Positions 12,840 through 58,039 of a DNA stretch of 64,000 nucleotides are shown one piece after another. This DNA is from Candidatus Kaiserbacteria bacterium (lineage in GTDB: Bacteria > Patescibacteriota > Minisyncoccia > Phycocordibacterales > JABAAK01). The notes under the pieces were generated by a model. It ran no database searches, was not told where the DNA came from, and worked only from the letters and a program-made list of their open reading frames with translations. The DNA lies in assembly GCA_026713605.1 (NCBI GenBank), contig JAPOOC010000010.1, positions 10,556 to 74,555 of the forward strand, read 5' to 3'. Numbering within the stretch: position 1 is the first letter of the stretch; each line of letters starts with the position of its first letter. The position numbers were made by a program, and so were the translations under genes.

Positions 12840-12916
12840 ATAGGTAGTGTATCACGGTGGATTTGTTTGTGCATACAAAAAGATTGCCCCGAGCAGATGC
12901 TCGGGGCGTAGTTAGG

Positions 12917-13321: not shown

Positions 13322-13402
13322 GATTTTTCCTCCTTTTTTTTTTAGATTTTGGTGCAAGAGCACCTATTCTAAATTATACAATATAACTATAATTTTGTCA
13401 AT

Positions 13403-13477
13403 GCACGCCCGGTAGGACTTGAACCCACAACCTCCCGGTCCGAAGCCGGACGCTCTATCCAATTGAGCTACGGGCGC
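13403..13477 (-). tRNA. tRNA-Arg (anticodon TCG), no encoded CCA
   Basis: Minus-strand cloverleaf: acceptor GCGCCCG (G1-U72 wobble), anticodon stem TCCGG/CCGGG, loop CTTCGGA, T-arm GTGGGTTCAAGTCCTAC. Confidence 0.65.
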
Positions 13478-13529
13478 TTGGTAGAATTGTAGCACGGAGA
13501 TAGGTTGCTACTGACTACTGATCGTTTCA

Positions 13530-13612
13530 GTGGCGGAATTGGCTGTGCCCAGAAGAGGGCTTGAACCTCCACGAGATTGCTCTCATACGCTCCTGAAGCG
13601 TACGCGTCTACC
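13530..13612 (-). pseudogene. partial tandem duplicate of the tRNA-Leu 3' two-thirds (from the D-loop GGTAGACGCG to the 3' end, plus ~17 nt downstream)
   Basis: 83-bp unit 97% identical to 13656..13738. It lacks the 5' acceptor/D-stem half, so it cannot fold into a complete tRNA. Confidence 0.6.
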
Positions 13613-13671
13613 CGTGCCGGCAATCTCTGATTGACGCTGACTATCAGACGCCACGGTGGCGGAATTGGCTG

Positions 13672-13755
13672 TGCCCAGAAGAGGACTTGAACCTCCACGA
13701 GATTACTCTCATACGCTCCTGAAGCGTACGCGTCTACCAATTCCGCCACCTGGGC
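13672..13755 (-). tRNA. tRNA-Leu (anticodon CAG), long variable arm, no encoded CCA
   Basis: Minus strand GCCCAGGTGGCGGAATTGGTAGACGCG...TTCAGGA...GGTTCAAGTCCTCTTCTGGGCA; strong similarity to canonical bacterial tRNA-Leu. Confidence 0.8.
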
Positions 13756-13829
13756 TACACAGGAAGTATACCGTATTGGCACTTTTGCCTTATCTTTTGA
13801 CGACAGCGGGGTATATACTGTTGGTAAGT

Positions 13830-23251: not shown

Positions 23252-23253
23252 TT

Positions 23254-23754
23254 ATGAAAAGATTAATACAAATAATGACAACTTATAATTTATTAAATTA
23301 TCTATTGCCGGGCATCTTGTTTGTCATTTTTGCAAATCATTTTACCTCGTATTCCTTTTTACAAGAGAATTTGATAATAGGGGGTTTTTTGTACTATTTT
23401 ATAGGTATGGTAATTAGTCGAATAGGGTCGTTATTTATTGAGCCATTCTTAAAAAAAATTCGTTTTTTAAATTTTGCTAATTACAAAGATTTTATTTATG
23501 CTGGCAATAAGGATGAAAAAATAGGAGTTCTTTCTGAACAAAATAATCAATATAGAACCATTGTGGCATTTCTAGTATCAATTGGTTTACTGAAAGTGTG
23601 GGAATTATTTTCTGATTATTTGAACTTAAGCCAATTTGCGGAAGCGGTGATTATTTATGTGGTTCTTTTGATAATATTTTTAGTTTCGTATAGGAAACAA
23701 ACAAATTATATAAGGTCAAGGGTTGAGGCAAACAAAAAAGAGGGCGGGTCATAA
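23254..23754 (+). CDS. small 4-TM membrane protein, hypothetical (island gene)
   Basis: 166 aa with four hydrophobic helices; starts 3 nt after the MBL gene stop; AT-rich. Confidence 0.5.
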   Translation: MKRLIQIMTTYNLLNYLLPGILFVIFANHFTSYSFLQENLIIGGFLYYFIGMVISRIGSLFIEPFLKKIRFLNFANYKDFIYAGNKDEKIGVLSEQNNQYRTIVAFLVSIGLLKVWELFSDYLNLSQFAEAVIIYVVLLIIFLVSYRKQTNYIRSRVEANKKEGGS

Positions 23755-23886
23755 AATAAACATTACAGCCCACCTTGCTAAATTAAGAAAATCCACATAT
23801 TTTGATATAATTCAATATTTTTACCTTATACTATTAGTGTATGTGGTGTGCTATGTGCCGTTTTCTTTCTTCAGGTTTCTTTACTT

Positions 23887-25779
23887 GCTATGGTTGAGAA
23901 AAGTTACAAGATTGGCGAAGTGGCAGAGATGTTGGGGGTGCATGAGGACACCTTGCGAAATTGGGACGCGCATGGGTTGGTGGTGGCAGACAGAGTAGGG
24001 ACGAGGAAAGATAGGAGGTATACAGTGGAACACATAAAGCAGATAAAGGAGAAAGGGCTTGTGTCTGATCTTGCGAGGCGGCAGCCGAGCGGTCGGGATT
24101 ATTCGGATTATTCAAAGGAACAGTTGATTAAGGAGTTGCAAATATTGAAAGAACAGAGAAAGTACGGACTTGTGTGGGAAGATAAGCCGGAAGAGGTTGT
24201 TGAGATGTGTAAGACACAGGCACCCATCTTAAAATCAGTTCCAAAAATGAATGTTGCTGGAAGAAAAGGTGAGCAACGAAATATTATGATAGAGGGAGAT
24301 AACTACCATGCTTTGCAAGTTTTAAACTATACGCACAAAGGAAAGATTGATGTGATATATATTGATCCACCGTATAACACGGGAGCGAAAGATTGGAAAT
24401 ATAACAATGATTATGTTGAGAAAGAAGATGCCTTTCGGCACAGTAAGTGGATTTCAATGCTGTACAAAAGAATGTTATTGGCAAAGTCTTTATTAAAAAG
24501 TGATGGCGTAATGATAGTTACGATTGACGACCACGAATTATTTAGTCTTCTTGGGATTATTGAAGATCTTGATGCTACAACATTGGGTAGAGTTACCGTG
24601 TCAATTAAGCCAGAAGGCAGGCAACAAAGTAGATATGTGATGGAGTCCCATGAATATATTATATTTATGTCTTGGGGTGTACCTAAAATTAGAGGTCTAA
24701 ATATAAATTTCGGCTCAGATTTTACTGAGGAAGATGAAATTTCTAAATTTAAGTGGGAAGGGTTTATGCGTAGGGATGCTGGTCGTGAGGATAGAAGTTC
24801 AAATACTTGGTATCCAATTTATGTAGATCAGCAAGGCAATGTTAGTCTTAAGGAAAAACCAAACACGATTAAAGTGTTGCCTATAAATACAAAAGGCATT
24901 GAACGAGTCTGGCTTTGGTCAGAAGAAAGAGCACAAAAAGATATAAGTGAATTAAAAGCAGTGATCAGAAATAATCGAGCTACTGTTTACTACAAAAGGA
25001 GAGAGCAAGAGCGAGTTAAACCAACCTCAATATGGTTTGGTAGTAAATATAATGCAAATGCATACGGCACAAGACTCTTATCAAGAATCTTGCCGGAGAA
25101 CAATTTCGATTACCCAAAAAGCCTTTATTCTGTGCTGGATGCAATAGATTTATTTTTACCAAAAGATGGGTTGGTATTGGATTTCTTCGCTGGATCAGGA
25201 ACAGCAGGACACGCAGTGATGGAATTAAACAAGGAAGATAGCGGAAGTAGGCGATTTATCCTCTGCACAAATAACGAAAACAACAATGGTAACGGACATG
25301 GTGGGATTGCTGAGAGCGTGTGTCAGCCGAGGATTAAAAAGGTGATGAAGGGATATAAGAAAAATGGGAATGGAGAGAGGGTTGAGGGGCTTGGCGGCAG
25401 TTTGGAATACTTTAAAACAGAGTTTATTGATGTGGAGAATGTGAGTGATGTTCCAGACAAGAAAAGGTTGCGATTTACCCATGAAGCCGGACATGTGGTC
25501 GCTTTGAAAGAAAACGCGTTTACTGAGTTGGAGAAAAATAATTGGTATCAGATATTTACTGATGGATTAGATAAATATGTGGGTCTTTATTTTAGAGAAA
25601 ACATTGAAAAATTAGAGGATTTGGAACAAAAGATTTTAAACAGGGGAGAGGTAAAATTATATATATTTTCACATGGCGGCAGTGATGACTGGAAAAATGA
25701 CTATACAGAGCATGAAAATGTGATAGTTGAAGATATACCAGAGCCGATATTAAAGGTGTATAAAATTTTAAATAGTTAG
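23887..25779 (+). CDS. MerR-type HTH fused to an N6-adenine/N4-cytosine DNA methyltransferase (beta class; Type III Mod-like)
   Basis: YKIGEVAEMLGVHEDTLRNWDAHGLV MerR HTH; IYIDPPYNTG (motif IV) upstream of LDFFAGSGTAGHAV (motif I), the order typical of Type III Mod/beta-class MTases. Confidence 0.8.
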   Translation, partial: AMVEKSYKIGEVAEMLGVHEDTLRNWDAHGLVVADRVGTRKDRRYTVEHIKQIKEKGLVSDLARRQPSGRDYSDYSKEQLIKELQILKEQRKYGLVWEDKPEEVVEMCKTQAPILKSVPKMNVAGRKGEQRNIMIEGDNYHALQVLNYTHKGKIDVIYIDPPYNTGAKDWKYNNDYVEKEDAFRHSKWISMLYKRMLLAKSLLKSDGVMIVTIDDHELFSLLGIIEDLDATTLGRVTVSIKPEGRQQSRYVMESHEYIIFMSWGVPKIRGLNINFGSDFTEEDEISKFKWEGFMRRDAGREDRSSNTWYPIYVDQQGNVSLKEKPNTIKVLPINTKGIERVWLWSEERAQKDISELKAVIRNNRATVYYKRREQERVKPTSIWFGSKYNANAYGTRLLSRILPENNFDYPKSLYSVLDAIDLFLPKDGLVLDFFAGSGTAGHAVMELNKEDSGSRRFILCTNNENNNGNGHGGIAESVCQPRIKKVMKGYKKNGNGERVEGLGGSLEYFKTEFIDVENVSDVPDKKRLRFTHEAGHVVALKENAFTELEKNNWYQIFTDGLDKYVGLYFRENIEKLEDLEQKILNRGEVKLYIFSHGGSDDWKNDYTEHENVIVEDIPEPILKVYKILNS

Positions 25780-25780
25780 T

Positions 25781-26869
25781 ATGAAAAAAATAACATTAAA
25801 ACCATTTCAGATTAATATAATCAAAAGATTGGAAAATTTTTCTTTTCGGAAGTTTGTTGATCTTGATAATTTTTTCAATGTAAAAAATATCGTTTTATTA
25901 TTTGTATTTATCTGGCTTATTGTTGCTTTTTTGTTTATGCATAAAATCGAGATGGAATTATTATCACCTTTGATCAGGATTCTTAGTATTATTGGTTGGG
26001 GAACCATCGGATACTTTGTTATTTGTCATACTGCTGGCTATGGCCTGTATAAGAAAATAATTCCTTGGGGAGAACGAGGAGCGGTAATAAAAATTATTGG
26101 CGTGTGTGTTGGATTATCCATCGGTTGGGTTTTTACATTTTTTGTAAGATGGATGCATGCGCTGCTCTTGAGTGAGGTGCTCGTCATTAGTATTGCTACG
26201 GTATTTGCGATGTTATTTTCTTACCTCGTATTTAGATTTTTCAGATACAGTAATCAAAATATCAAGGGAGGTGTTGCTTACATAGATGGCAATAATTTGC
26301 ATAAGGGGAGTAGGCAATTGGGTTGGGTGTTGGATTATCAAAGATTCAGGCAGTGGTTGAAGGATAAGTATGATATAGAACGGGCAGTAATTTTTATTGG
26401 GTATTTGAAAAAAAATGAGAAATTGTATTCGGATTTGAGAAGTCAAGGTTACGAGCTTTGCTTTAAAGAAGTTTCTTATGGCAGAAGAGGAGAAATCAAG
26501 GGAAATGTAGATTCAGATTTGGTGCAGAAAGTAATGGAAGATTACTCGGAGGAAAAGTTAGGAGAAAATAGTGTTGTTATAGTTTCTGGTGATGGTGATT
26601 ATGCACCGAATATACGATTTTTAAAAAAGAAAGGATTATTTAGAGCGTTGCTTGCTCCATGTAATGAAAGTCAAATGAATAATGGTAAAAGATCTGGAGT
26701 TTCTGTGTTGCTAAAAAAATTAAATATACGAATTGATTACATTGGTAACCATAAAAATGTATTAGAGAAAAAGAAAAGGCGCCCAGCGAAGACGATACAT
26801 CGCAAGGCCCCAATTCATCGTGATAATAAAATTGTATCTAATAATGAGAAAAATGTCAATATTTCATAA
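25781..26869 (+). CDS. membrane-anchored NYN-domain (LabA/PIN-like) predicted ribonuclease
   Basis: About 4 TM helices in the N-terminal 170 aa, then AYIDGNNL...GNVDSDL...VIVSGDGDY NYN motifs. The first 11 aa (MKKITLKPFQIN) are shared with the next gene. Confidence 0.65.
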   Translation: MKKITLKPFQINIIKRLENFSFRKFVDLDNFFNVKNIVLLFVFIWLIVAFLFMHKIEMELLSPLIRILSIIGWGTIGYFVICHTAGYGLYKKIIPWGERGAVIKIIGVCVGLSIGWVFTFFVRWMHALLLSEVLVISIATVFAMLFSYLVFRFFRYSNQNIKGGVAYIDGNNLHKGSRQLGWVLDYQRFRQWLKDKYDIERAVIFIGYLKKNEKLYSDLRSQGYELCFKEVSYGRRGEIKGNVDSDLVQKVMEDYSEEKLGENSVVIVSGDGDYAPNIRFLKKKGLFRALLAPCNESQMNNGKRSGVSVLLKKLNIRIDYIGNHKNVLEKKKRRPAKTIHRKAPIHRDNKIVSNNEKNVNIS

Positions 26870-26880
26870 AGGAGAATAAT

Positions 26881-29112
26881 ATGAAAAAAATAACACTAAA
26901 ACCATTTCAAGTTAATGCGATTGAAGGCCTGAAGAAGGAGGTGTTGCATCGATGGAGGAGAGATACACGGCAGGATATAAAGTTTCAGTCGCCGACAGGA
27001 TCGGGTAAGACGGTGATGATGGCTCAATTTGTGCGTGACTTGGTGAATGCGCCGGAATTATCAAATGCAGATTTTGCCTTTTTATGGGTGAGTATTGGCG
27101 GATCAAGTGATGGGGATCTGGCATATCAGAGCAGGAATAAGTTTGATGAGTACTATGGTGGCGCGTCTGAAGTTGCTGTTACCGGACTGGACAGCTTGAG
27201 TAGAGAGAAAAAAATGGAGCAAAACGAAATACTGTTTTTTAACTGGTCAAAGATTAAAACGAGAAATAAGGATGGCAGGAAACTGAGAAGGGAAAACGAA
27301 CAGGAGATAACGTGGGACGGCATGATACAGAGAACGCACGCAGAAGAGCGAGATATTATCCTCATCATTGACGAGGCGCACAACAGCAGCTCAACACTTC
27401 TTGCTGAGGAAGAGATAAGGTTGATCAATCCAAAGATGGTGATACACATCACCGCAACGCACCGGGATCAAAGTAATATAGATGTGCATGTCACTCCTCA
27501 GGAAGTAGTACAAGCTGGGCTTATAAAAGAGTTAATCAAATCACAAACACAGCAGGATTTTAAGGATAAGCGAGTGAAAGATTTAGACAAACATGTTCTC
27601 AAACTATCTCTCAAAAAGAGAAAAGAGATTGCATCTTTGTATAAAAAAGAAAAAGTGGATGTAAATCCGCTACTTATGATTCAGTTGCCAAATGATGATC
27701 GGGCAAATCAGGAAGAAGAAACAAAAAAAGAATCTGTGCTGCGATGGCTGAAAGAAGAAGGTGTTGATGAAAACACTGTTGCGATATGGCTTGATAAAGA
27801 GAAAACACGATTAGAGAACATAACGATGCATAATAACGGTATCGATATTCTGCTATTCAAGCAGGCACCGGCTACTGGCTGGGATTGTCCAAGGGCACAG
27901 GTATTGTTGATGTATCGTGAAACAAAGGATCCCGTCTTTCAAGTGCAGGTGTTGGGGAGGATTTTGCGCATGCCGGAAGGAAAGCATTACACAAAATCAA
28001 AATTAAACAGTTCGTACCTCTACACCACCTACACAAAAAATGAGATTATTGACAATTACGGTAATTACCAAGGAGAAAATCAATTAGCAATCTTTCGTGC
28101 ATCTATTAAAAAAGCTATTGAGCAAATTAAACTCAAAACATTTGTTTCTCAAAGAACCAGTTACAACGACCTTGGAAAAACATTTCAGTTCACCTTTATC
28201 AAAACTGCCAACAAAGCATTTGATAAAAAGAAATCCTTTCAGTCCTGCTTTACCTTCGGCGAAGAGGTTGAGTTAGATTTGATAGTTGATCAGGATATAC
28301 GAGATTACGATGGCTTTATACAAGCAATTAAAGAGGCGGACAGTTTGGGGCAAAAAATGTCTCGCAATGATATAGAGAAGTTGTATAAGAAATTGTGTAT
28401 TGAGATTTTACATAAACAGGAAGAAGAAACAAAATTTAAAAACATCGCCAGGTCATACGGAAAATTAAAATCTGCTATTAATGTGTGGTTTGAAAAATAT
28501 GTTGGTATTAGAGATAAAAATGAATACTACCCTTGTGTTGTGAATGACCTTAACAGAGGGGCAAACAGCATCCTGCTCCCAGTGATAAATAAGGCATTGG
28601 AACAATATGTTTCTGTAAGAAGTAAGGAGGAGGAGGAGCGAGACAAAAAAAAGGTTGATACCAAGGAAATTCTAATACCCCTAAGTGATTTCTCTTATAC
28701 AAGCAACTATGAAGAAATATCAAGTACCAAATGCGCCATGTCGCCGTGTTATGTAAACAAGAATAATGAAAACGAGAGAAAGTTCATAGAATATCTTGAG
28801 AATAATGCATCTGTTGAGTGGTGGTATAAAAATGGGGAAAACGGATCAGAACATTTCTCTATAAGAAGGGATAGTGGTAATTTATTTTTTCCCGACTGGT
28901 TTATTAAAACAAAAAAAGACATTTGGGTGGTAGACACGAAAGGAGGGTTCACTGCTGAAGGAGAAAGTGCTGTTTCTCGGGCAAAAGCATTAGACATATG
29001 GTTGAAAGAAAACAAAAACTTTAAGGGAGGTCTTGTAAAGGAAGTTTCTGGTCTTTGGAAGATTGCAAAAGATACAAAGTTGGAAAAGTGGGTTGATTGG
29101 AATTTTGAATAA
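26881..29112 (+). CDS. Type III restriction enzyme Res-like DEAH-box helicase with C-terminal PD-(D/E)xK-type nuclease region
   Basis: LKPFQ Q-motif, SPTGSGKT Walker A, IIDEAHN DEAH box; C-terminal FFPDWFIK...VVDTKGG nuclease-like motif. Confidence 0.75.
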   Translation: MKKITLKPFQVNAIEGLKKEVLHRWRRDTRQDIKFQSPTGSGKTVMMAQFVRDLVNAPELSNADFAFLWVSIGGSSDGDLAYQSRNKFDEYYGGASEVAVTGLDSLSREKKMEQNEILFFNWSKIKTRNKDGRKLRRENEQEITWDGMIQRTHAEERDIILIIDEAHNSSSTLLAEEEIRLINPKMVIHITATHRDQSNIDVHVTPQEVVQAGLIKELIKSQTQQDFKDKRVKDLDKHVLKLSLKKRKEIASLYKKEKVDVNPLLMIQLPNDDRANQEEETKKESVLRWLKEEGVDENTVAIWLDKEKTRLENITMHNNGIDILLFKQAPATGWDCPRAQVLLMYRETKDPVFQVQVLGRILRMPEGKHYTKSKLNSSYLYTTYTKNEIIDNYGNYQGENQLAIFRASIKKAIEQIKLKTFVSQRTSYNDLGKTFQFTFIKTANKAFDKKKSFQSCFTFGEEVELDLIVDQDIRDYDGFIQAIKEADSLGQKMSRNDIEKLYKKLCIEILHKQEEETKFKNIARSYGKLKSAINVWFEKYVGIRDKNEYYPCVVNDLNRGANSILLPVINKALEQYVSVRSKEEEERDKKKVDTKEILIPLSDFSYTSNYEEISSTKCAMSPCYVNKNNENERKFIEYLENNASVEWWYKNGENGSEHFSIRRDSGNLFFPDWFIKTKKDIWVVDTKGGFTAEGESAVSRAKALDIWLKENKNFKGGLVKEVSGLWKIAKDTKLEKWVDWNFE

Positions 29113-41387: not shown

Positions 41388-42263
41388 TTAGTTACACACA
41401 CTGAACTGTGTTGGCGTTATGCAGAATGATACCGTGCCGTTTGCGGTGTAGTATTCGGTGAGGTTTTCTGTTGGGTTTTTCTCGGCGTACACCCTGACGC
41501 GGCTGAGGACTATGTCGTGCGGGTGCCCATACGGATTATCTTTTCCTGCGGAGTATACAATTGCATTTGGCTTGGTGTGCTGTAGAAAAGTTGCTGTCGT
41601 TGCGGTTTTTGATCCGTGATGTCCTGCTTTGAGTATCTCTATGTCATCCAGTTTTTCTGGAAAAGATTCTATGAGGAAATTTTCTATTTCGGTGGGCGCG
41701 TCACCGGTGAGTACTATTTCCGTATTGCCGTATGTTACCAGTAGTGCAACTGATGCGGCGTTTGTTTCGGTTACCTCCGTACTCAGTGGCCACAGAATAT
41801 CAAATTGCACACCATCAAGGAGGAACGAGCGTGGTTGCTGTATGGTGTGTACCCCTGCTTTTTCCTTCTCTATCGCCTCCATGACTTGCTTATACACACT
41901 ACTTTCTGACACTGCAAATGACTGCAGTATTGTTCCGACTGTGTATCGCTCCAATATTGGTATGAAACCGCCGATGTGATCCTCATCTGGGTGTGTCATT
42001 ACCACAACATCAATGTTTCTGTTTCTTGTTGACACTATATCATCAAGCGCACTGAGTACCTGTATCCCCCTACCTGCATCAATTACTACTCGATGGCTAT
42101 TTGGTGTCTCAAGTACTATGGCATCTCCTTGCCCGACATCGAGGAAGTGTACACGGAGTGGTTCTTCTTCTGTGAACAGCATGTGCCATACCAGCGCATA
42201 CCACCAGTAACCAATTATGAGTATGGTGGCGGTGAGTACAGTGATTGCTGTTTTTTTGTTCAT
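41388..42263 (-). CDS. ComEC/Rec2-type metallo-beta-lactamase domain protein (separately encoded C-terminal domain of ComEC)
   Basis: N-terminal [30 protein letters not shown] and [12 protein letters not shown] motifs of the ComEC MBL domain. Confidence 0.7.
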
Positions 42264-46131: not shown

Positions 46132-48807
46132 TTATTCTTCTGCTTGGTATACTCGCTGTCTTTCTGTTCTCGTGTGTGGTTGCGCTGTGTCTTGTGCGTT
46201 GTTGTGGCGTGGCAATGCTGTTTGCGGTCTCCGTCTTGGGTGGCGAGCTGGTGGTCGGGAAGGTGTTTCTTCGTCCCTACTGTTATCTGCTCGGCCTCTC
46301 CGATGGGGTTGCTGGAATGGTGGTGTGTCATCCTTGTCATCTGGCACATACCTTGGAACTCTTGGCGGGCGAGGTGGTGTGCTGTTTTGTGGTGATTCGG
46401 TCTTTCTTGGTGATGTCGGCATTTTAAAACTTTCTCTTTCTTTTGGTTTTTGTGCTTGCTTTGGTCTGGTGGCATGTTTGAGGGCGGAATACTGGATGAT
46501 TTTTTCCTTAATTTCTTTTGAGCCACGAGGTGCAAAGCGAATTTTCATTGTGAAAGGAGAGAGTGGCTTACTGTTTGAGAGCATGCCGATAACGCAGTTA
46601 AGGTTTTCTGTTTCGGTGAGCTCTATTGCTGAAAATTGTGGCGTGAATTTCTTTTCCAGTATTTCCGCATCTTCTACACCAACTCGGAATGAAATGGTGG
46701 TGCCGACATTACCGAGTACCGCACCACGAATAGAGTCGGTGAGTTGCGCCATATATTGATGGGCAATGTTCAGGCTGAGTTTGTACTTTCGCGCCTCTGA
46801 AAGAATTTGTTCAATACTGTCGCTGGTGAAGTTCTGAAACTCATCAATGTAGAAGTAGAACGGACGACGGTCATCTTCGGCGACATCATCTCGCGAGAAT
46901 GCTGCGAGTGCGAGTTTACCACTGATGATCATGCCGAGCAGTCGTGCGTTTATTTCACCAATTTTTCCTTTTGGGAGACGGACAAACAAGAGTTTACCGC
47001 TATCCATTACTTCTCGGAATGAGAATGAGGAACGAGGTTGGCTAATGATCGGGCGAACATAGTCGTTTGAGATGAAGTTACTGAATTTTGAGGTGATATA
47101 TGGTGCGATATTTTCCAGCGCAGCATCCCCACCTGCTTTTTGTGCCTCTTCCTCCCAGAATTTTTTCACTGGTTCGTTGTGGCAATTTTTTAACATCTCT
47201 GCCCTGAAATTTTCATCGGTTAGTACTGTTGGCACTTCCATGAGTGTTGCCGGCTCATCTGTTTTACCTTCCATAAGGAGGAGGAGTGCGTTGCGCATAT
47301 ACTGCTCAAACACCGGCCCCATGGTTTCCGCATCAAATAAACTGTAAAAAATAGACAGGATTTCGTTTACAATAAAGGTTTTTTCTTGTGGGCGGGATCG
47401 GTCATACTCCAACATGTTGAGGGCGAGCGGGTATTCGATATTGCTTGGATCAAATACGATCACATCGTCTATTCGTTTCTCTGGCACCGTCGCAAGCATA
47501 TCATCAACCAAATCACCATGCGGATCAATGATACATACCCCCCTTCCTTCTTGGATATCCTGATACGCCATTGATTTAATGATTGCTGTTTTACCGGTAC
47601 CTGTTTGCCCAACGATGTAGAGGTGTCGCATTCGGTCTTTTTCCGGCATATACACCGGTGTTTCTTGTCCGTGGAAAACATTGTCGCCCAGCAAGAGCCC
47701 TTCTGACGCAATCTCAGTCGGAGCTGCCACACGCTTGGTCTTCATCCACTGCAGGTTTGCAACTTCCATGGATTGGTTGAGGAGGTGAAATATGCTGCTG
47801 ATTTCTTGTGCGTTCATTGCCATTGCGCTTTTTTCGTCTGGTAGACGGAATGCGAGGTCAAGTGCTGCTTTTCTATCTTTCTTCTTGGTGAAAACGAAAC
47901 TGTTGTGTCCTGCGGAGCCGAATTGGTCAAATCTTCCTTTCAAGTTATCAAGTAGGAGGTCTGCTTTTTCTTGTGTTTGTGCTGAAACCCCCACTCTAAT
48001 ATTAACCTGATATAACTGCTCCTGTGTTTTCTCCTCAACCTTTTCTGCCTCTGATGATGGTTCAGTGTTTTCATCTGTTTTTTCTGCAATCATCTTTTCT
48101 ACAAATTGATCTACTTTTTCCGTTGTTTTTCTTGGCTTTAATTCTTTCAGTTTTTTTCCTTTTTTTAACCCTTTTAGTACACCCTTTATCTCATCGGTTT
48201 GTTTTTTTGTTGCTTTCTGTAGCACCAACTGCATTGCCATACCGGTTCGTTTTTCTTTTGCGTTCGCAAATGCGGTGAGGATTGGGGCGAATGAATCAGT
48301 TTCGGTTTTTCTGTACGACCGGATGGGGAGCGCGTGGAATTCCTTTAGTGTGAGTGTTGAAAGAATGCTCGGGTTTTGGGCATAGAAAATCGTGTAATCT
48401 GAAACTTCTTGCACTTGTGCACGCTCAAACACCCGTCGCACCTGTGTCTTGACAGTTTCCGCATACGCAGTAGGCGTGGCGATAAAAAACTGTATATCGG
48501 ACCCTTCGTTTGTTATGGCAACCTCAAAGATTATTGGCTTTTTTTCTGGGATGATGGAGTGTAGCAGGTCTTCAAAGAGGCGAATCTGCTCCATCTCTGA
48601 CATCTGTGTGTCTGTGTGTGGTGTTTGGGTGATTTGGAGTAAGATATATTCCGCCGACTCTTTCAAGGTTTTCTTTTTTTTCTTTTTGTTTATATAACGC
48701 GTAAAAAGCATTGTGATGACCCAAAGGGAGAGGATGACTGCGATCAGTATGATTACCTGTGCATTTCTGCCTGCAAGCATGCTCTGTATCTCTGGTGTTA
48801 GTATCAT
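46132..48807 (-). CDS. VirB4/TraG-family conjugation/T4SS-like P-loop ATPase with disordered Pro/Arg-rich C-terminal tail
   Basis: Single N-terminal TM; ~400-aa N-domain; HLYIVGQTGTGKTA Walker A; FYFYIDEFQNF Walker B; AHQYMAQL TraG-D_C-like motif; C-terminal 120 aa low complexity (PRPPRVPRYVPDDKDD...). Confidence 0.55.
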   Translation of the reverse strand: MILTPEIQSMLAGRNAQVIILIAVILSLWVITMLFTRYINKKKKKKTLKESAEYILLQITQTPHTDTQMSEMEQIRLFEDLLHSIIPEKKPIIFEVAITNEGSDIQFFIATPTAYAETVKTQVRRVFERAQVQEVSDYTIFYAQNPSILSTLTLKEFHALPIRSYRKTETDSFAPILTAFANAKEKRTGMAMQLVLQKATKKQTDEIKGVLKGLKKGKKLKELKPRKTTEKVDQFVEKMIAEKTDENTEPSSEAEKVEEKTQEQLYQVNIRVGVSAQTQEKADLLLDNLKGRFDQFGSAGHNSFVFTKKKDRKAALDLAFRLPDEKSAMAMNAQEISSIFHLLNQSMEVANLQWMKTKRVAAPTEIASEGLLLGDNVFHGQETPVYMPEKDRMRHLYIVGQTGTGKTAIIKSMAYQDIQEGRGVCIIDPHGDLVDDMLATVPEKRIDDVIVFDPSNIEYPLALNMLEYDRSRPQEKTFIVNEILSIFYSLFDAETMGPVFEQYMRNALLLLMEGKTDEPATLMEVPTVLTDENFRAEMLKNCHNEPVKKFWEEEAQKAGGDAALENIAPYITSKFSNFISNDYVRPIISQPRSSFSFREVMDSGKLLFVRLPKGKIGEINARLLGMIISGKLALAAFSRDDVAEDDRRPFYFYIDEFQNFTSDSIEQILSEARKYKLSLNIAHQYMAQLTDSIRGAVLGNVGTTISFRVGVEDAEILEKKFTPQFSAIELTETENLNCVIGMLSNSKPLSPFTMKIRFAPRGSKEIKEKIIQYSALKHATRPKQAQKPKERESFKMPTSPRKTESPQNSTPPRPPRVPRYVPDDKDDTPPFQQPHRRGRADNSRDEETPSRPPARHPRRRPQTALPRHNNAQDTAQPHTRTERQRVYQAEE

Positions 48808-49292
48808 AGTAGTCCTTGGTCATGCATTTTTTGATGCAGTAGTTGCGCCAATGAGTCGTGAAATATGTCTATGAGGTATGGATCATTTTTTTTCTGCGCT
48901 TTTTTTACCGCTCCGACTATGCCGTTGTGTACTGCCCCTTGTACCAATTCAGTTACTGGCTCTCTGTATTTTTCCGGCACCTTTTCAAGGTAATTTTCCA
49001 CTTTCGTGCCCTCAAGATTTGCCGGCTGTAGTGTTGCGGTGCTGTCAAACTCTTCCTCGTCTCCGTCATCATCGTCTCCGTCATCATCACTGCCACCTCC
49101 TCCACCGATGTCACCATATGATTCCTGTAATTCGGTGCGAATTTTTTCTAATTCTGCTTCCCGCTGTTGTTCAATGGCATTGCCTTCTTGCTGTTCTGCG
49201 GCATTTTCCCGCGCTTTCTCCCCCCGCACCTTTTCAGCGATAGTACTTACACTTTCTTCAAATGATTCTAATTTTGATTCTTCTGTTGGCAT
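48804..49292 (-). CDS. acidic coiled-coil hypothetical protein
   Basis: GGAG SD before MPTEESKLESF; GGGGSDDDGDDDDGDEEEFD poly-acidic tract. The start is moved from the track ORF (49397) to the SD-preceded Met. Confidence 0.35.
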   Translation of the reverse strand: MPTEESKLESFEESVSTIAEKVRGEKARENAAEQQEGNAIEQQREAELEKIRTELQESYGDIGGGGGSDDDGDDDDGDEEEFDSTATLQPANLEGTKVENYLEKVPEKYREPVTELVQGAVHNGIVGAVKKAQKKNDPYLIDIFHDSLAQLLHQKMHDQGLL

Positions 49293-49379
49293 GTGTACAG
49301 TATACTCCAGTGAAATGTGTACAACTTTCCTGTGTGATAAAAGGTGGTATTCTATAGGTATATGGTAAACCCAAAGGAG

Positions 49380-52300
49380 ATGTGGAGGCGCGTGCAAGAA
49401 GGCACGACGAAGCGAACAAAGAAGAATGAGGAGGTGCTGACCTCACAACCAGCGGATGCGGAAGTTCAAGAAGGCATCCCTCAAGAGACACAGGAGCAAG
49501 GTGGTCAAGAGGGTACGCGCGATACGACGCCCACTGAAACCGTACAGCCGGCAGTGGAATCTGACACACTATCGGATGAGCAGGAAGGGTCTGTTGCTGA
49601 ACAGTATGTCCGTCTTGCGTATGATCTTGATCAAGTTGTTTTTGATTGGAGTGACAAGGTGGCTCACCCCATAAAAACGGCAAAGCAGGGTTTGCGTAAG
49701 GCGATAGATGAGGCGTTTGAAGATCCGAAAGGGCAGGTTTCTACTGACGAGTTGTGGGTTAAGATGTTTTTGTTGGGATTTGGTGTATTATCTAGCAATG
49801 TACGCCAGAGAGACATTGAGACGATTCAGCGTTATGTGGCAGCAAAAGAGAAGGTTGATGAGGAGGTGGAATCTCGTTTAGTCGCTCTGCAGGAAAAGAT
49901 GGGTTCTGATACTGTTGACCCCGATGCTGTTGAGGGGGCGTTGGAGATGATTGCCCACTTTGAGCATCAACTGTTGCATGAAGAGGTTCGTTTGCGTGAG
50001 AGTATGAAAAATGACACTCGGTCGGTGGAGAAGGTGCTGGAGTGGTGGAAATGGTTGGGGGACAAAAATTTGGCATCGTGGTGGTTTTCAGAAGAGAAAG
50101 GGGGAAAGCCGAAAAATACTCTTGGTGGTAAGATTGGTTATGCCGCATTGCGCGCAGCGTCACTTCGAACACTACTACTGGGTTTTTTGGTGCCAGTTGC
50201 TGGGTTCGCCGCTGGCGGCACTGGTGTCGCCGCCGCGTTTACTTTGCGACGAGGGATATCAACGCTGACGGGTTCATCTGCCGGTGCACACGCAGGGCAT
50301 GCGTTCACAAAAGCTTTCTTGGAAAAGAGTTTGAAAGGAAGGATTGATGCTGTGGTTTCTCAGAAAACCTTTGAGCAGGAGGATTATGAGCAGATTATAA
50401 CACTGAAAAAAGAGTACGATGCATTTATTCAGCAATATCACCCCGATACCGCTGAGGAGATGCGAAGTGGAGCGGAATATGAGAACATACAGAATGCATA
50501 CCTTGAAGCGATTAAGTTTTTTTGTGCAGACGCTAAAGATGTGGAAAATCTTCGTATGAAGCAGAATCTTGGTGAAGCGCGCGCGCGGAACACTGTTAGG
50601 AAGAATAAAATTTTACTGTTTGGTGCTGGTGCTGGTGGCGCTCTTGTCGGTGGGGCATTTTCTGCTTTTGCTATGCCGAAGCTCTTTGATTGGGGGCGCG
50701 ATTTGGTTGGTAAGATATTCCCCGACTCACACCCGCTTGATTTAAAAAACATGTCGCAAAAACTGCGTAATCTATATGGAGGTGTGGCACCCTCATATGG
50801 CGCTGAATCTGTTCCACAGGATGCATTGGTAGATTCTCAGGACACTGTGAGTGGTGATGCGGAAGGCCCCACCTCAAAAGAAGATGTTGAGAAAAAACGC
50901 ACTGAACCTGCAGGTAAGGACACACAGACAGTTGATTTGTCGGATATTACTTCAGAAGATGGTGAAAAGGTGGTGCCATCAGAAGTGGTGTTAGATGCAG
51001 GTGCCAAGGAGCGCAGTTTCAGCTTGCAAGACACCCCTGATGCGGCATCACCGGAGCGTGTGCAGCAGGATTCTTCTGCAAATGATGGTCCGGAATCAGC
51101 GAATACCACTGCCGATGTCGACTCGTCGGGAGTGGAGCAATCACCAGTAGAAGATTCTGCGGATTTTGTGGTGGAAAATGGCTTTTACACCGTGCGAGAA
51201 GGAGATTCGTTGTCAAAGATATGGCTGGAAAAAGTGCAGCGTGATGGTGGATCCATGACATCGGGGGAGTTAGCCGCTATGATGGAAGAGTTGGGGAATC
51301 TGGATGATGCGACGCTGCGAGATTTCGGCATTCGCAGCGGTACCATAGATCTCATTTATCCTGATGACAAAATTAATATTGATGCAATACAGACACACTT
51401 GGATTCGAGTGAGGTGCCTGCTGCTACTGAAAAAAGTGCCGACACTTCTTCAGATTGGAGGGACAGGCAATCAGAGCTTGATGAGCGTTTTTCAAAAAGA
51501 TCTGTTCCAAGTCCGGATTCAGGTGTGCCTGACGCAGACACCGCTAATGCTTCTGCGGATGCCCTTGACAACGAGGTGGAAGCAGCGGAGGTACCGATCA
51601 CCTTGACACCGGAAGCGAGGCAAGCAGTTCTGGAGAATCTTTCTAAAAACATTCCATCAGAAATAAATTTGAATGAAATGACGGTTGACGAAATGCTTGG
51701 TGCACACGCAGTGCCTGAGCATCTTGTTACTATTGCTGTTGCAGGTTCCGACTCCGAACCTTTGCCATACACTGTTTTGCAGAAGTACAACCCTGCTGTA
51801 CTGGAAAAAACTTTTCCCCTTGGCTCTTCGGGCGATATTGAGGTTGCTATGGAAAAAGGTGTGGTGATGCATTTGGATGTGGGTGAGGTGAAAGACGGCT
51901 ATACCACCTCCATTCGCAAAGATGACCTTGACACTGGTGACCTTGAGCGCCACCTCCAGAAACCGAGAAAAAATAAGGAGTACTTATTGCAAGAATTGCA
52001 CACCCTTGTGCAGGCATGGTCAATAGACATGTTACCTGGCGACAATGCAGATGGTTTTCAGGCCGCAAAGGAGTTGCTGGTGAGTGATCTTGCAAAGAAA
52101 GATTTTGCAGGATTGAAACAACTGCTGTCAACATATGAAATGCTCTATGATGGGAATAGGGATTCCTTGCGGTTTGCGTATTCCCACGATGGTGATGTGA
52201 CCTCCTTGTCTGTCGACGGAGTGTTCAGGGGTGACACTATTGCAGTTGCAGATGTTTCGTTTCGTGAGGTGCCTGCTACTACTGAAAAAAGTGCCGACAC

Positions 52301-52415
52301 TTATTCAGATTGGAAGAACAGGCAGCCAGAACTTGATGAGCGTTTTTCAAAAAGATCTGTTCCAAGTCCGGATTCAGGCATGCGTGGCGATGATACGGTT
52401 GATGGTGAAAAATAA
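49380..52415 (+). CDS. large (~1010 aa) membrane protein with LysM-like motif and an internal 113-bp duplicated segment; possible T4SS/competence-associated surface or channel protein
   Basis: AAAGGAG SD before MWRRVQEG; two Gly/Ala-rich TM segments mid-protein; FYTVREGDSLSKIW LysM-like motif; two copies of a ~38-aa repeat (EVPA(A/T)TEKSADT(S/Y)SDW(R/K)(D/N)RQ(S/P)ELDERFSKRSVPSPDSG). Confidence 0.45.
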   Translation: MWRRVQEGTTKRTKKNEEVLTSQPADAEVQEGIPQETQEQGGQEGTRDTTPTETVQPAVESDTLSDEQEGSVAEQYVRLAYDLDQVVFDWSDKVAHPIKTAKQGLRKAIDEAFEDPKGQVSTDELWVKMFLLGFGVLSSNVRQRDIETIQRYVAAKEKVDEEVESRLVALQEKMGSDTVDPDAVEGALEMIAHFEHQLLHEEVRLRESMKNDTRSVEKVLEWWKWLGDKNLASWWFSEEKGGKPKNTLGGKIGYAALRAASLRTLLLGFLVPVAGFAAGGTGVAAAFTLRRGISTLTGSSAGAHAGHAFTKAFLEKSLKGRIDAVVSQKTFEQEDYEQIITLKKEYDAFIQQYHPDTAEEMRSGAEYENIQNAYLEAIKFFCADAKDVENLRMKQNLGEARARNTVRKNKILLFGAGAGGALVGGAFSAFAMPKLFDWGRDLVGKIFPDSHPLDLKNMSQKLRNLYGGVAPSYGAESVPQDALVDSQDTVSGDAEGPTSKEDVEKKRTEPAGKDTQTVDLSDITSEDGEKVVPSEVVLDAGAKERSFSLQDTPDAASPERVQQDSSANDGPESANTTADVDSSGVEQSPVEDSADFVVENGFYTVREGDSLSKIWLEKVQRDGGSMTSGELAAMMEELGNLDDATLRDFGIRSGTIDLIYPDDKINIDAIQTHLDSSEVPAATEKSADTSSDWRDRQSELDERFSKRSVPSPDSGVPDADTANASADALDNEVEAAEVPITLTPEARQAVLENLSKNIPSEINLNEMTVDEMLGAHAVPEHLVTIAVAGSDSEPLPYTVLQKYNPAVLEKTFPLGSSGDIEVAMEKGVVMHLDVGEVKDGYTTSIRKDDLDTGDLERHLQKPRKNKEYLLQELHTLVQAWSIDMLPGDNADGFQAAKELLVSDLAKKDFAGLKQLLSTYEMLYDGNRDSLRFAYSHDGDVTSLSVDGVFRGDTIAVADVSFREVPATTEKSADTYSDWKNRQPELDERFSKRSVPSPDSGMRGDDTVDGEK
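51411..51523 (+). repeat. intragenic direct repeat copy 1 (pairs with 52266..52378, ~93% identical)
   Basis: GAGGTGCCTGCTGCTACTGAAAAAAGTGCCGACACTTCTTCAGATTGG...GTCCGGATTCAGG repeated 855 bp downstream in the same frame. Confidence 0.85.
52266..52378 (+). repeat. intragenic direct repeat copy 2
   Basis: See copy 1. Confidence 0.85.
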
Positions 52416-52430
52416 TGGTATAGTAATAGT

Positions 52431-52733
52431 ATGTTGAAAAAAGAGATTAAGAAAAAAAATTTAATTGAAATTTTAGAACTGGAGTCGCTTCCACCTGAAG
52501 CGCAGGTTGAAGTTGTTGACTCTGCGGTGGATGTGATAGAGATGCGGTGTCTGAATGAGGTGCTTGAATCGCTTGATACCCGAGGAAAAAAGCGATTTGT
52601 GAAGCTTATGGATGCCGGTGATGCGGAGGAGGTTGGTATTTTTTTGAAAGACAAATCTATAGATTTGATGCAGATTCTTGATGAGGAGGTGTTGCGTTTC
52701 AAAACAGAGGCGGCAACTGCGTTTAGTAGGTAA
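52431..52733 (+). CDS. small acidic hypothetical protein
   Basis: 100-aa ORF starting 16 nt after the previous gene's stop. Confidence 0.3.
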   Translation: MLKKEIKKKNLIEILELESLPPEAQVEVVDSAVDVIEMRCLNEVLESLDTRGKKRFVKLMDAGDAEEVGIFLKDKSIDLMQILDEEVLRFKTEAATAFSR

Positions 52734-52738
52734 TTTTT

Positions 52739-53026
52739 ATGATGAATGAACGAGGACACAGACAAAACAGTCATTACAAACATGCAGAGCGGGCGTATAA
52801 AGATAAGGTGGCAAAGCGTGATGAAGTGTATGCTCAAGAGGTGGTGAGCAAGGTGCGAACACGGGAGGAGGGTGTTGTCGCCATACAGGAGGTTGAGCGA
52901 TATACCGAAGGAGCCGATGCCAAGCGATTCTTTCGGGAGGTGGCGTACGCTGCGCTTGATAAACGGTTTCCCCACATCACCCCACTGGATGATGTTGGTG
53001 ATGCCTCTCAGAAAAAAGCGGCGTAG
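52739..53026 (+). CDS. small basic hypothetical protein
   Basis: 95-aa ORF starting 6 nt after the previous gene's stop. Confidence 0.3.
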   Translation: MMNERGHRQNSHYKHAERAYKDKVAKRDEVYAQEVVSKVRTREEGVVAIQEVERYTEGADAKRFFREVAYAALDKRFPHITPLDDVGDASQKKAA

Positions 53027-53138
53027 GTTTTTTGTTGTTGTATACTATATAGTATATGTTTGAAGGGAAATCATGGTTACTTCCATTAGTGATTGTTCTT
53101 GTTCTTGTTGCGTTTTTAGGGAAACCGTCAGCACTTCT

Positions 53139-54617
53139 TTAATTTTCATTTTCTCTTTCTTCTTTTTTCCCTTGCGATTGTTGGTATCCGATGTATATGA
53201 GTGTTGCCGTTACTATGAGCGTTACAAACACCCCTATTTCTGGCAGTGGTAGCGTTGCGTGTGGCACCCTTGCCAATATTTCAGTTATGGCAGTTATTAA
53301 TTTCAACGGCAGGTAAGCGATTGGAGACACTATGGTTGCTACCGGTGGTGCTATGGTCGCGATGAGTGTAGTTGCCGCACCGAAGAGCATTGCAACCGGT
53401 ATGATCGGTAAAACGAGTATGTTCGCTGGTATTCCTACCACAGATATTTCTCCTATTGCGTATGCCAGGTAGGGGAATAGGAGTATGTGCGTTGCTAGTG
53501 TCGCTGCCACAATGCTACGCATTTCATATTTTTGAGGTATTTTTTTCATTTTTTTCTCGATACTTTCTGAAAAAAGCAAGAGTCCAAGTGTTGCGAGGAA
53601 CGACAGGTGGAATGCTGTGCTGAACAGTACTTGTGCTGGGTTGTATACCATCATGGCGAGTGCCACAAATGTCAACGCACGGATACCGTCGTATTCACGG
53701 TGTGTTGCTCGGGCGACAAGTGCTATTACTGCCATGCTTCCCGCTCGTATCGCTGCCATTTGTGCCCCCGCAAACAGAACGAATAGTACTATCACTGCTA
53801 AAGATACTGTGAAGCTGACTGTGGTAGGTGTTTTCCTGAGTATTTTTCGTACCCCTTCTGCAATCAAGGTTATATTGTGTCCTGATAACACAATGATATG
53901 TATCAATCCAGTTGCCCTAAATGCCTCCATAAGATCTGCCGGCAGTGTCCCGCGTAGTCCGAGCAATAATCCTCCCAGCAGTGTTGCTTCTTTTGTTGGT
54001 AAAAATGTATGCATTGCTTTTACAAAGTGTGTACGCATCCTCTCAAAAATTGCATACTGTTTTCTCTGACCGACACACCCACTTTCTTGTATGTACGATA
54101 TCGCAGATATGCCCATCTGTTGCAAGTACCGCTTGTATGCGAACACTCTCCCCGCATTAGTCATAAAATCTTCCGCTTCGCTTAATTTTGCCTCAAATGA
54201 TACCTCCTCGCCACTCACACACCGGGATGGGTATGGTTCGTAGACCAGTATCTTCTTTTCTTCTACCACCTCGTTGTTGATTTTGTGTATTACTACGGTA
54301 TACCTGCTCTTTGTGTTCTTATCCTCTATATCGCCCTTTATAACTCCCTCTATGTGTACCTGTTTTTTGTACTGCTCTGTTATAGATATGTCTTGGTTTT
54401 TCATTGGCAGTAGTACCCGCATTATCCCAAGTAGCACAATAATACCACACACGCAAACCAGCATTGCCTTTTCTCTCTTTTGTAATAGCAATACTGCCAC
54501 CGCTAGTCCAACAACACTATACGCGATGTATGGTGCCGCATTCCATGTGATGTGTTGCGCTATGGTGCAACCGAGCGCGAACGCTGCTGTGATTGCGATG
54601 ATAAAAAATCTTGGCAT
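53139..54617 (-). CDS. comEC: ComEC/Rec2 DNA-uptake channel, membrane portion only (no MBL domain)
   Basis: N-terminal DUF4131-like OB region then the competence domain ATLLGGLLLGLRGTLPADLMEAFRATGLIHIIVLSGHNITL; ends after the last TM without an MBL domain. Confidence 0.75.
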   Translation of the reverse strand: MPRFFIIAITAAFALGCTIAQHITWNAAPYIAYSVVGLAVAVLLLQKREKAMLVCVCGIIVLLGIMRVLLPMKNQDISITEQYKKQVHIEGVIKGDIEDKNTKSRYTVVIHKINNEVVEEKKILVYEPYPSRCVSGEEVSFEAKLSEAEDFMTNAGRVFAYKRYLQQMGISAISYIQESGCVGQRKQYAIFERMRTHFVKAMHTFLPTKEATLLGGLLLGLRGTLPADLMEAFRATGLIHIIVLSGHNITLIAEGVRKILRKTPTTVSFTVSLAVIVLFVLFAGAQMAAIRAGSMAVIALVARATHREYDGIRALTFVALAMMVYNPAQVLFSTAFHLSFLATLGLLLFSESIEKKMKKIPQKYEMRSIVAATLATHILLFPYLAYAIGEISVVGIPANILVLPIIPVAMLFGAATTLIATIAPPVATIVSPIAYLPLKLITAITEILARVPHATLPLPEIGVFVTLIVTATLIYIGYQQSQGKKEERENEN

Positions 54618-56319: not shown

Positions 56320-56369
56320 GGCACCATGCTACCACCACTATTCCCGTGCCACTCTTTTGTTATTTTTCT

Positions 56370-56378
56370 TTATCCACA
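56370..56378 (+). promoter_or_regulatory. perfect DnaA box TTATCCACA upstream of dnaA
   Basis: Exact consensus 9-mer, 60 bp upstream of the dnaA start, in an AT-rich spacer. Confidence 0.6.
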
Positions 56379-56438
56379 AAAAACACACTCCTCACACCCT
56401 TGCTTTTTACTACTACAGTAGGGAATAATAAATGATAT

Positions 56439-57803: not shown

Positions 57804-58039
57804 CGTAGTGGAAACCGTGTGGATATTGTGGTTATCTTTTCTTTGGTTTTGTGTGTATAACAAGTGTACTGTCGAAATGTTTCCACAGTGGAAATTTTTT
57901 GAGATGTGTTTTTCACAACTTTTTAAAAGTTGTACACACCTTTATACCAATTCATAATTGAAAAAATGTTTTGTATGTCCTGCGCATTTTTTGCTTATAC
58001 ACTTTTGCACATTATTAGTAGTACTAGTATACTTTATAT
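57804..58039. promoter_or_regulatory. putative oriC (dnaA-dnaN intergenic): degenerate DnaA boxes plus AT-rich unwinding region
   Basis: TGTGGATAT (57818..57826) and TGTGGTTAT in tandem, TTCCACAGTGGAAA, TTTTCACAA; strongly AT-rich 57940..58039. Gene-strand polarity switches here. Confidence 0.6.

Follow-up and report, generated by a model that had tools for sequence, protein, structure and literature searches.

Does a cluster of genes close to dnaA in a Candidatus Kaiserbacteria genome encode a DNA-translocation or type IV secretion system (T4SS)-like module that is physically coupled to competence? This had been proposed in a preliminary description of the stretch of DNA analyzed here, which covers 64 kb of the genome of this member of the class Paceibacteria (Patescibacteria) and is referred to below as the window. 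Patescibacteria depend on hosts, and to our knowledge theirs is the only T4SS known to be essential for growth. The genes in question encode an 891-aa ATPase, a giant envelope protein, and the competence channel ComEC, and the genes, motifs, and in-frame repeat that had been described were all found in place (Table 1).

The window contains two conserved gene pairs arranged back to back, a small acidic partner plus the ATPase on the minus strand and the giant protein plus a DUF5663-family protein on the plus strand. We interpret these, with moderate confidence, as a putative orphan envelope translocase module that derives from a T4SS and is neither a canonical VirB4 system nor tied to comEC or the origin. 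The anatomy and family placement of the module are very probably as given below. Of the T4SS-like translocation module originally proposed, the T4SS-derived branch of the ATPase was retained, but not VirB4 membership, a VirB6-like protein, or the coupling to competence. The module is now concrete and testable, and the tempting annotation of a "competence-coupled T4SS" has been removed from it.

Comparisons drew on 86 loci, comprising 80 from GTDB species representatives (37 to 47% identity; up to 10 kb of flank on each side of the ATPase) and five reached through database homologs (six with L003, a second copy of L002). The L087 and L090 loci are shorter stretches.

Table 1. Positions in the window of the module genes, their domains and repeats, and adjacent open reading frames (ORFs)
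Feature	Position	Strand	Evidence or remark
DUF8128/type IV coupling protein-type ATPase, 891 aa	46132..48807	-	ORF, motifs, Pfam, NCBIfam, AlphaFold2 (AF2), Foldseek
Disordered P/R/Q-rich C-terminal tail, aa 784-891	46135..46458	-	pLDDT < 50
P-loop motor, aa ~370-780	46468..47700	-	Walker A, helical insert aa 473-603, Walker B DEF, AHQY..QL
DUF8128 N-terminal domain, VirB4-like N-terminal fold, aa 48-352	47752..48666	-	Domain-only AF2 + Foldseek
Small acidic partner, 162 aa from MPTEESK, 24% D+E	48804..49292	-	Conserved domain (alignment A1), ATGA overlap
Giant fast-evolving predicted envelope protein, 1007 aa	49392..52415	+	Alternative starts 49344, 49362, 49380
Hydrophobic segment 1, aa 271-299 (numbered from 49344)	50154..50240	+	Hydropathy scan; conserved block of alignment A2
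Hydrophobic segment 2, aa 423-444	50610..50675	+	Hydropathy scan, alignment A2
LysM-like module with insert, aa ~607-698	51162..51437	+	Profile searches, homolog alignment
Direct repeat copy 1, 47 aa	51409..51549	+	In-frame
Direct repeat copy 2, extreme C terminus of giant protein	52264..52404	+	In-frame
DUF5663-family protein, 100 aa	52431..52733	+	Pfam DUF5663 E 0.002, sub-threshold
95-aa ORF, doubtful gene	52739..53026	+	No family match
ComEC channel part, 492 aa, DUF4131 + Competence	53139..54617	-	Neighbor, not conserved module part

A coupling protein-type motor with a VirB4-like N-terminal domain

The ATPase starts with a transmembrane anchor (aa ~14 to 40), followed by a domain resembling the N-terminal domain (NTD) of VirB4, a motor of the TrwB/VirD4 kind into which an all-alpha domain is inserted, and a tail predicted to be disordered. 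The motor contains Walker A GQTGTGKT (aa 400 to 407), a Walker B stretch YFYIDEFQN, and AHQY (aa 682 to 685), and its catalytic residues are invariant among homologs. The tail varies among these, and homologs are 731 to 1174 aa long. GQTGTGKT, AHQY, and the long proline-rich tail had all been pointed out before, and the low predicted local distance difference test (pLDDT) scores of the tail bear out its disorder. The AF2 model of the whole protein (pLDDT 81) resembles TrwB in having the helical insert between Walker A and Walker B.

By sequence profile, the motor groups with the type IV coupling proteins (T4CPs). Pfam TrwB_AAD_bind (36.9 bits; cutoff, 20.5), TraG-D_C (27.1 bits; cutoff, 22), and DUF87 all exceeded their cutoffs, the top NCBIfam matches were TraD and VirD4-like models, although every T4CP equivalog score was well short of its cutoff (62.9 bits versus 366), and a profile of 39 homologs searched against the PDB retrieved TrwB (E 4e-8) and DotL (E 7e-4) but not a single VirB4 chain at E ≤ 1. 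VirB4 was absent from the 16 Pfam families matching at E ≤ 0.1, and NCBIfam VirB4_plasma scored 17.5 bits against a cutoff of 590. By fold, Foldseek aligned the motor with TrwB (TMt 0.6 to 0.66), its best relative of solved structure, and the whole chain with TrwK/VirB4 over 840 to 890 columns. Because of this whole-chain match the DUF8128 domain was modeled alone (pLDDT 86.7; predicted template modeling score [pTM], 0.86). With this single method, 14 of 14 significant matches in the PDB were TrwK/VirB4 chains (E 6e-6 to 5e-4, TMq 0.46 to 0.50), and the matches ranking below them had TM ~0.2.

The motor is hence of the coupling-protein type (TrwB/VirD4/TraD) and the DUF8128 domain has the VirB4-NTD fold. 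Judged by its profile matches, the ATPase appears to fall, within the FtsK-HerA superfamily, on the VirB4/VirD4 branch and not in FtsK or HerA proper. Its initial assignment to a TraG/VirB4 family was right as to this branch and the fold of the NTD, but not as to VirB4 membership, for which a sequence-profile match is missing.

Comparison with named systems leads to the same hybrid picture. The ATPase shares with T4CPs (TrwB of R388, VirD4, TraD, DotL, Cagbeta) the P-loop with its inserted all-alpha domain, the Pfam matches, and an N-terminal membrane anchor. Unlike T4CPs, in which a two-helix anchor leads directly into the nucleotide-binding domain, it has a single hydrophobic helix (none in the fused forms described below) followed by an extra VirB4-NTD-like domain of ~300 aa that canonical T4CPs do not carry, no relaxase or mating-pair genes nearby, and a chromosomal, class-wide, housekeeping context. 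With VirB4 (TrwK of R388 and the MPF-FATA-like clade of Patescibacteria; PMC12102498) it has in common the two-domain architecture and the TrwK-like fold of the NTD, but neither the sequence-profile match nor VirB3, TrsD, VirB6, or pilin neighbors.

Two further readings of the ATPase were tried and rejected. As a defense system it has only generic HerA/mad8 P-loop matches in PADLOC, in a context that is not a defense island. As a phage protein it has, in IMG/VR and GenBank phages, only relatives limited to the ATPase domain. These phage relatives, from Bacillus phages and four IMG/VR loci on three contigs, are 25 to 36% identical in that domain. The PHROGs phage family phrog_5156, to which no function is assigned, aligns with the entire ATPase (E 9e-78).

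An acidic partner, separate or fused

The gene directly upstream of the ATPase gene encodes a small acidic, presumably cytoplasmic protein. The two genes form a translationally coupled operon, the stop codon of the first and the start codon of the second overlapping in the sequence ATGA. The C-terminal domain of this partner is conserved among homologs (alignment A1). It is encoded as a separate co-directional gene directly upstream of the ATPase in 31 of the 86 loci and is fused to the N terminus of a longer ATPase lacking a transmembrane helix in 21 (all within L035 to L086, e.g., L075:9371-12157, L069, and L040); most other loci have either an undetected upstream gene of 150 to 180 aa or a long ATPase N terminus. 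Fused ATPases carry the partner domain in place of the N-terminal transmembrane helix and are therefore predicted to be soluble. The homolog at L006:7998-10931 keeps the partner domain and has in addition a hydrophobic stretch (aa 154 to 201) with room for two helices, making a third architecture in the family beside the separate and the fused one.

From these comparisons, the partner appears to be an invariant, obligatory companion of the ATPase, and gene fusion together with the ATGA overlap suggests a physical interaction between the two. Homology searches detected 220 members of the partner family, for which Pfam has no model, and a search of solved structures with its profile gave nothing significant. 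An NCBI entry from a Candidatus Kaiserbacteria metagenome-assembled genome (MAG) matches the partner at 100% identity. The presence of a small acidic protein encoded beside the ATPase is reminiscent of CagZ, which regulates Cagbeta; the Cagbeta-CagZ complex 8dol was among the fold matches.

Relation to canonical T4SSs

The preliminary description had suggested looking for a VirB2-like pilin or a relaxase nearby. None was found, nor were homologs of VirB3, VirB4, VirB6, or VirB8, among the ORFs scanned in the window (all those of ≥130 aa in 1 to 40 kb, except overlapping shadow ORFs, and the main ones in 40 to 64 kb). The same is true of the relatives, T4SS parts (VirB3, TrsD, VirB6, VirB8, or pilin) being absent among the upstream and downstream neighbors of the ATPase in ~80 loci.

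A survey of Patescibacteria counted 5,713 VirD4-like T4CP homologs in 2,918 genomes, 148 of them near virB4 (Quinonero-Coronel et al. 2025, PMC12102498), and most likely included the present ATPase family among the T4CP homologs not near virB4. Its authors state that exaptation of these homologs cannot be ruled out (PMC12102498). That each genome has about two T4CP-like ATPases, almost none near virB4, was left unexplained in the survey (PMC12102498). For the ATPase family studied here, our findings add a VirB4-like NTD, an apparently obligatory and sometimes fused partner, a statistical linkage to DUF5663 and big wall-associated membrane proteins, and the lack of a conserved link to comEC.

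The alternative that survives best is that the ATPase is the cognate coupling protein of a canonical chromosomal T4SS encoded elsewhere in the genome, the giant and DUF5663 proteins being unrelated to it. The motor is T4CP-like, T4CP genes often lie away from virB4 (PMC12102498), and the VirB4-like NTD could dock on VirB3 or VirB8. In Table S3 of the survey, the L085 genome (GCA_000991405.1) encodes a true VirB4 with VirB3 and VirB2 next to it, distinct from the ATPase, plus separate T4CP hits (PMC12102498), one of which, the t4cp1 hit KKP96999.1 (87% coverage), probably represents this ATPase family, as judged by position only. Yet a VirB4-type NTD is foreign to canonical T4CPs, and the fused forms without a transmembrane helix and the significant DUF5663 linkage (see below) point to partners of its own. 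T4CP-type hits are also more widespread than VirB4 (2,918 versus 2,417 genomes; PMC12102498), and in Saccharibacteria the T4CP homolog is nonessential while the T4SS is essential (PMC12102498). Two of five VirB4-negative Paceibacteria genomes inspected list t4cp1 without VirB3, VirB6, or TrsD, a count confounded by MAG incompleteness. With these points taken together we regard a cognate coupling protein as fairly unlikely.

A giant LysM-like protein with an internal repeat

The likeliest start of the giant gene is the GTG at 49392, with an AGGAG box upstream; it gives a protein of 1007 aa, as in the database gene call P0121, compared with 1023 aa for the longest ORF, from 49344. The size of ~1010 aa and the two transmembrane segments noted previously were thus confirmed, insofar as the protein has two hydrophobic segments. 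A long N-terminal region comes before these segments, the second of which is preceded by a strongly basic flank and followed by a neutral to acidic one. By the positive-inside rule, this charge distribution would place the C-terminal part outside the cell, and the C-terminal half of the protein, which is acidic and of low complexity, is probably extracellular.

The giant protein diverges fast, with 36 to 41% identity where the ATPase is 77 to 85% identical, and an exhaustive HMMER search found only 29 relatives among 1.84 billion representatives. Most of its length has no detectable family in Pfam or NCBIfam, and no hydrolase domain was detected with these models. Two parts are conserved in the homologs, namely a core surrounding the pair of hydrophobic segments and, as the best-conserved part of the predicted extracellular region, the LysM-like module. 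With a cutoff of 20.9 bits, Pfam LysM gave 14.1 bits (E 0.045) for the full-length protein and 19.8 bits for the region excised from it, and it matched two of seven homologs. The top two PDB profile matches of the module were LysM domains, of SafA (E 0.054) and LytE (E 0.48); they are weak but cover both halves of the motif, in order, with an insert of ~25 aa in between. The Pfam scores thus fall just short of the cutoff, and the data as a whole are consistent with a degenerate, LysM-like, putatively wall-binding module. The module recurs in L091 and in a 738-aa neighbor of the ATPase at L089.

In its probably extracellular LysM-like module the giant protein resembles the LysM wall proteins of Gram-positive T4SSs (VirB1-like, LysM/SLT/M23), and SLT/PG_binding or LysM+M23 genes lie beside the ATPase in L002, L090, and L004. 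It differs from them in the lack of a detected hydrolase domain and in the sub-threshold LysM with its insert. A VirB6/TrbL-like role, which had been considered for it, did not hold up: it is not polytopic (two hydrophobic segments versus at least five transmembrane segments in VirB6/TrbL), has no Pfam or NCBIfam match, and has no homolog in a canonical T4SS locus, the latter being one of two outcomes that the preliminary description had named as speaking against its proposal. A J domain in the loop at ~50400 to 50500 (aa 353 to 386, HPD; Pfam DnaJ E 0.0067) was considered and rejected: the corresponding position reads HSD, HAD, or RAN in the homologs and, HPD not being conserved, the loop is probably not a functional J domain.

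As a side observation, the divergent neighbor of the ATPase operon at L089:6240-8456 (minus strand) is the 738-aa protein mentioned above. It is highly charged and lacks a transmembrane helix; the LysM-like module is all that it has in common with the giant protein, and it contains a large internal duplication of its own.

The direct repeat, reported as 113 bp, is in fact 141 nt long with copies at 51409 and 52264 that are 88% identical (94% over the first 115 nt; longest exact block, 47 nt). It is in frame, its spacing of 855 nt equaling 285 codons. The 47-aa repeat is unique to the window genome and absent from all homologs of the giant protein. With a 47-nt exact block, in-frame length variation is possible, and the repeat could support such variation. 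This bears on the possibility that the giant protein serves as a variable adhesin or antigen at the cell surface, switching length via the repeats and being unrelated to the ATPase. The in-frame repeat and its exact block, the acidic, low-complexity, probably extracellular C-terminal half, and a very fast divergence with internal duplications that differ by lineage (the L089 protein having its own) would all fit. We nevertheless consider this explanation improbable. Of the 141 nt, 17 differ between the copies, and 11 codon changes are nonsynonymous, so that the copies are not being homogenized; no length variant was seen, the sole identical database entry being full length; and the divergent linkage to the ATPase operon outlasts changes in the flanks.

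Linkage of the two gene pairs

The 100-aa protein encoded after the giant gene has orthologs in L001, L090, and L091 that are annotated as PF18908. Its gene directly follows the giant gene in every locus that has one, i.e., the window, L001, L002, L090, and L091, which suggests that DUF5663 is the tightest partner of the giant protein. A search of solved structures with the DUF5663 profile gave nothing significant. In L002 and L090, the four genes lie between fusA and tuf in the order (SLT)-ATPase-partner <-> giant-DUF5663-tuf, and the four-gene module is intact in both despite their differing flanks.

The linkage extends further. Seven more DUF5663 genes, from seven lineages, were found in the 80 distant loci, all at ≤2.6 kb from the operon of the ATPase (P ~0.001). 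In four cases the DUF5663 gene comes right after a gene for a big acidic protein with one central transmembrane segment, and three of these four proteins are related to one another.

A mechanism can be proposed tentatively. The partner would bind and regulate the ATPase, which may form a ring at the membrane, its VirB4-like NTD docking on membrane partners. ATP would be spent to move a polymer, either DNA or protein in unfolded form, at a site anchored to the wall and organized by the giant protein, and the DUF5663 protein may act as an adaptor or be the cargo. A bolder extension, which we regard as rather unlikely, is that the partner, the DUF8128 ATPase, a fast-evolving, central-transmembrane wall-binding protein, and DUF5663 make up an undescribed, Paceibacteria-wide, minimal envelope translocation system that descends from T4SS ATPases yet is independent of the VirB4 machine. 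If this were true, the system might, for example, serve to export DUF5663-type cargo or to transport nucleic acid where the host is contacted, and the thousands of orphan T4CPs in Patescibacteria would be accounted for.

Several observations weigh against an orphan translocase module. Its two gene pairs are separable, because L091 has the giant and DUF5663 genes without the ATPase and L087 has the ATPase without either of those two. A giant protein beside the ATPase is detectable only in the Kaiserbacteria-like clade, and a hidden Markov model of the giant core gave no significant match to the distant big proteins with a central transmembrane segment (best E 0.053, in the transmembrane region only). 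About one-quarter of the ATPase family members have no transmembrane anchor, which is awkward for an obligatory membrane machine, and no channel-forming polytopic protein belongs to the module.

As to smaller features of this region, a promoter and terminator scan of 45.9 to 53.3 kb gave nothing beyond the shuffled expectation. The 95-aa ORF after the DUF5663 gene has no homologs, no counterpart in L001, and no similarity to the 158-aa gene of L090.

Distribution and genomic context of the ATPase family

Among the candidates scored, 2,140 matched the ATPase family at E ≤ 1e-5, all with PF26449 (DUF8128). Where the source names of homologs are informative they are from Patescibacteria (Kaiser-, Vogel-, Campbell-, Wolfe-, Nomura-, and Moraniibacteria, among others); a few MAGs bear other phylum labels, which we take as misassignments. 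ATPase identity remains at 42 to 47% across class-level distances. Neighbors of the ATPase operon in ~80 loci are housekeeping or envelope genes, the former including NDK, dnaX, pyrG, mreBC, and the str operon, the latter recurrently SLT/PG_binding, LysM+M23, PMT_2, and GtrA. The family is Paceibacteria-wide and chromosomal and sits in a housekeeping context. No mention of DUF8128 was found in the literature searched. Three distant loci have second, paralogous ATPases at <10 kb from the main copy (L064:4213-5706, L067:11706-13238, and L070:18139-21054).

Such a distribution could also be that of a housekeeping DNA translocase or helicase of the FtsK/HerA type, active in segregation or repair and similar to T4SS ATPases by ancestry only. 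Beside the class-wide occurrence and the housekeeping contexts, the strong purifying selection apparent from the ATPase-to-giant identity difference fits this idea, as do DUF87, the HerA central domain, which exceeded its cutoff, and Foldseek matches to HerA that reach E 3e-12. FtsK/HerA, defense HerA, and the archaeal Ced ATPases are indeed of the same superfamily, to judge from DUF87, the HerA fold, the HerA/mad8 matches, and weak NCBIfam matches to CedD (E 4e-9) and CedB (E 7e-4) in the P-loop region only. However, by every measure they score below T4CP and VirB4. The shared DUF87 P-loop region is the sole FtsK/HerA-side Pfam match above cutoff, FtsK_SpoIIIE (12.6 bits; cutoff, 24) and HerA_C (20.2 bits; cutoff, 22) staying below theirs, and TrwB, DotL, and VirB4 rank above HerA in the sequence and fold searches. 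A match to FtsK/HerA housekeeping families, the other outcome named as adverse in the preliminary description, thus did not emerge. The ATPase also has no NurA-like, other nuclease, or Sir2 partner and does not lie in a defense island; it has an N-terminal membrane anchor and envelope-type neighbors; and separate FtsK/TcpA-like (t4cp2) proteins are listed for the same genomes. A housekeeping translocase is for these reasons quite improbable, and the orphan translocase module remains our preferred reading.

Position relative to comEC and the origin

The preliminary description was correct in placing comEC a few small ORFs beyond the giant gene (Competence, E 5e-48; DUF4131, E 8e-10). It is followed by recJ, dnaA (56439), and dnaN. 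The distance of 700 bp to the module is the same in L001, and direct adjacency is confined to these two loci; in L089, comEC is ~8 kb away from the module, beyond the str operon. It is not found within 10 kb of the ATPase in L002 or in any of the 80 GTDB loci and is absent from the shorter L087 and L090 stretches. With the module lying between fusA and tuf in L002 and L090, its adjacency to comEC, recJ, and dnaA would be a later rearrangement, which is also the best explanation for the comEC/dnaA junction in the window. The position next to comEC and the origin thus appears to be a local accident and not a functional tie, and the claim that the module is "physically coupled to competence" is unsupported because the adjacency is not conserved.

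A T4SS-like DNA-translocation module coupled to ComEC, with the ATPase pulling DNA through or alongside the channel, could be argued from this proximity, the recJ gene adjoining comEC, the DNA-translocase superfamily of the ATPase, and the weak P-loop matches to CedD and CedB, which are archaeal DNA-import ATPases, but is very unlikely in view of the comEC distribution, the fusA-tuf location of the module in relatives, the T4SS components not found among the window ORFs scanned, and Southlakia epibionticum, in which loss of ComEC left the essential T4SS and type IV pilus functions unaffected (PMC12857230).

No turn in cumulative GC skew was seen across the window, and the origin call thus receives no confirmation from it. 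The window's only perfect DnaA box (56370 to 56378) is upstream of dnaA (within 56320 to 56438), and several near-DnaA-boxes are in the dnaA-dnaN spacer (57804 to 58039).

ComEC itself is split into two genes 11 kb apart on the minus strand, the channel part and a transmembrane-anchored metallo-beta-lactamase part at 41388 to 42263, which matches positions 431 to 653 of TIGR00361 (ComEC). L001, L002, and L089 likewise have a separate Lactamase_B gene, located near the str operon.

Other features of the window and its relatives

A low-GC island at 22052 to 29112 (0.36 to 0.39, versus 0.45 to 0.49 elsewhere in the window) encodes a MerR-type helix-turn-helix plus N6/N4 DNA methylase protein (23848 to 25779), an NYN-domain protein (25781 to 26869), and a ResIII/SNF2 helicase (26881 to 29112), together with two ORFs without a family. 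The whole has the look of a type III restriction-modification or defense island that was acquired.

Two unusual gene fusions were observed. On the minus strand, 5879 to 7801 joins Kelch repeats to a D-Ala-D-Ala carboxypeptidase (Peptidase_S11). On the plus strand, 1903 to 3573 combines an RnfD/NqrB-like membrane domain with FAD/NAD-binding oxidoreductase domains and adjoins ApbE. Lastly, fusA in L001, a close relative of the window (12797 to 14957), was called as three pieces of 439, 66, and 214 aa, suggesting frameshifts or assembly errors in the L001 contig.

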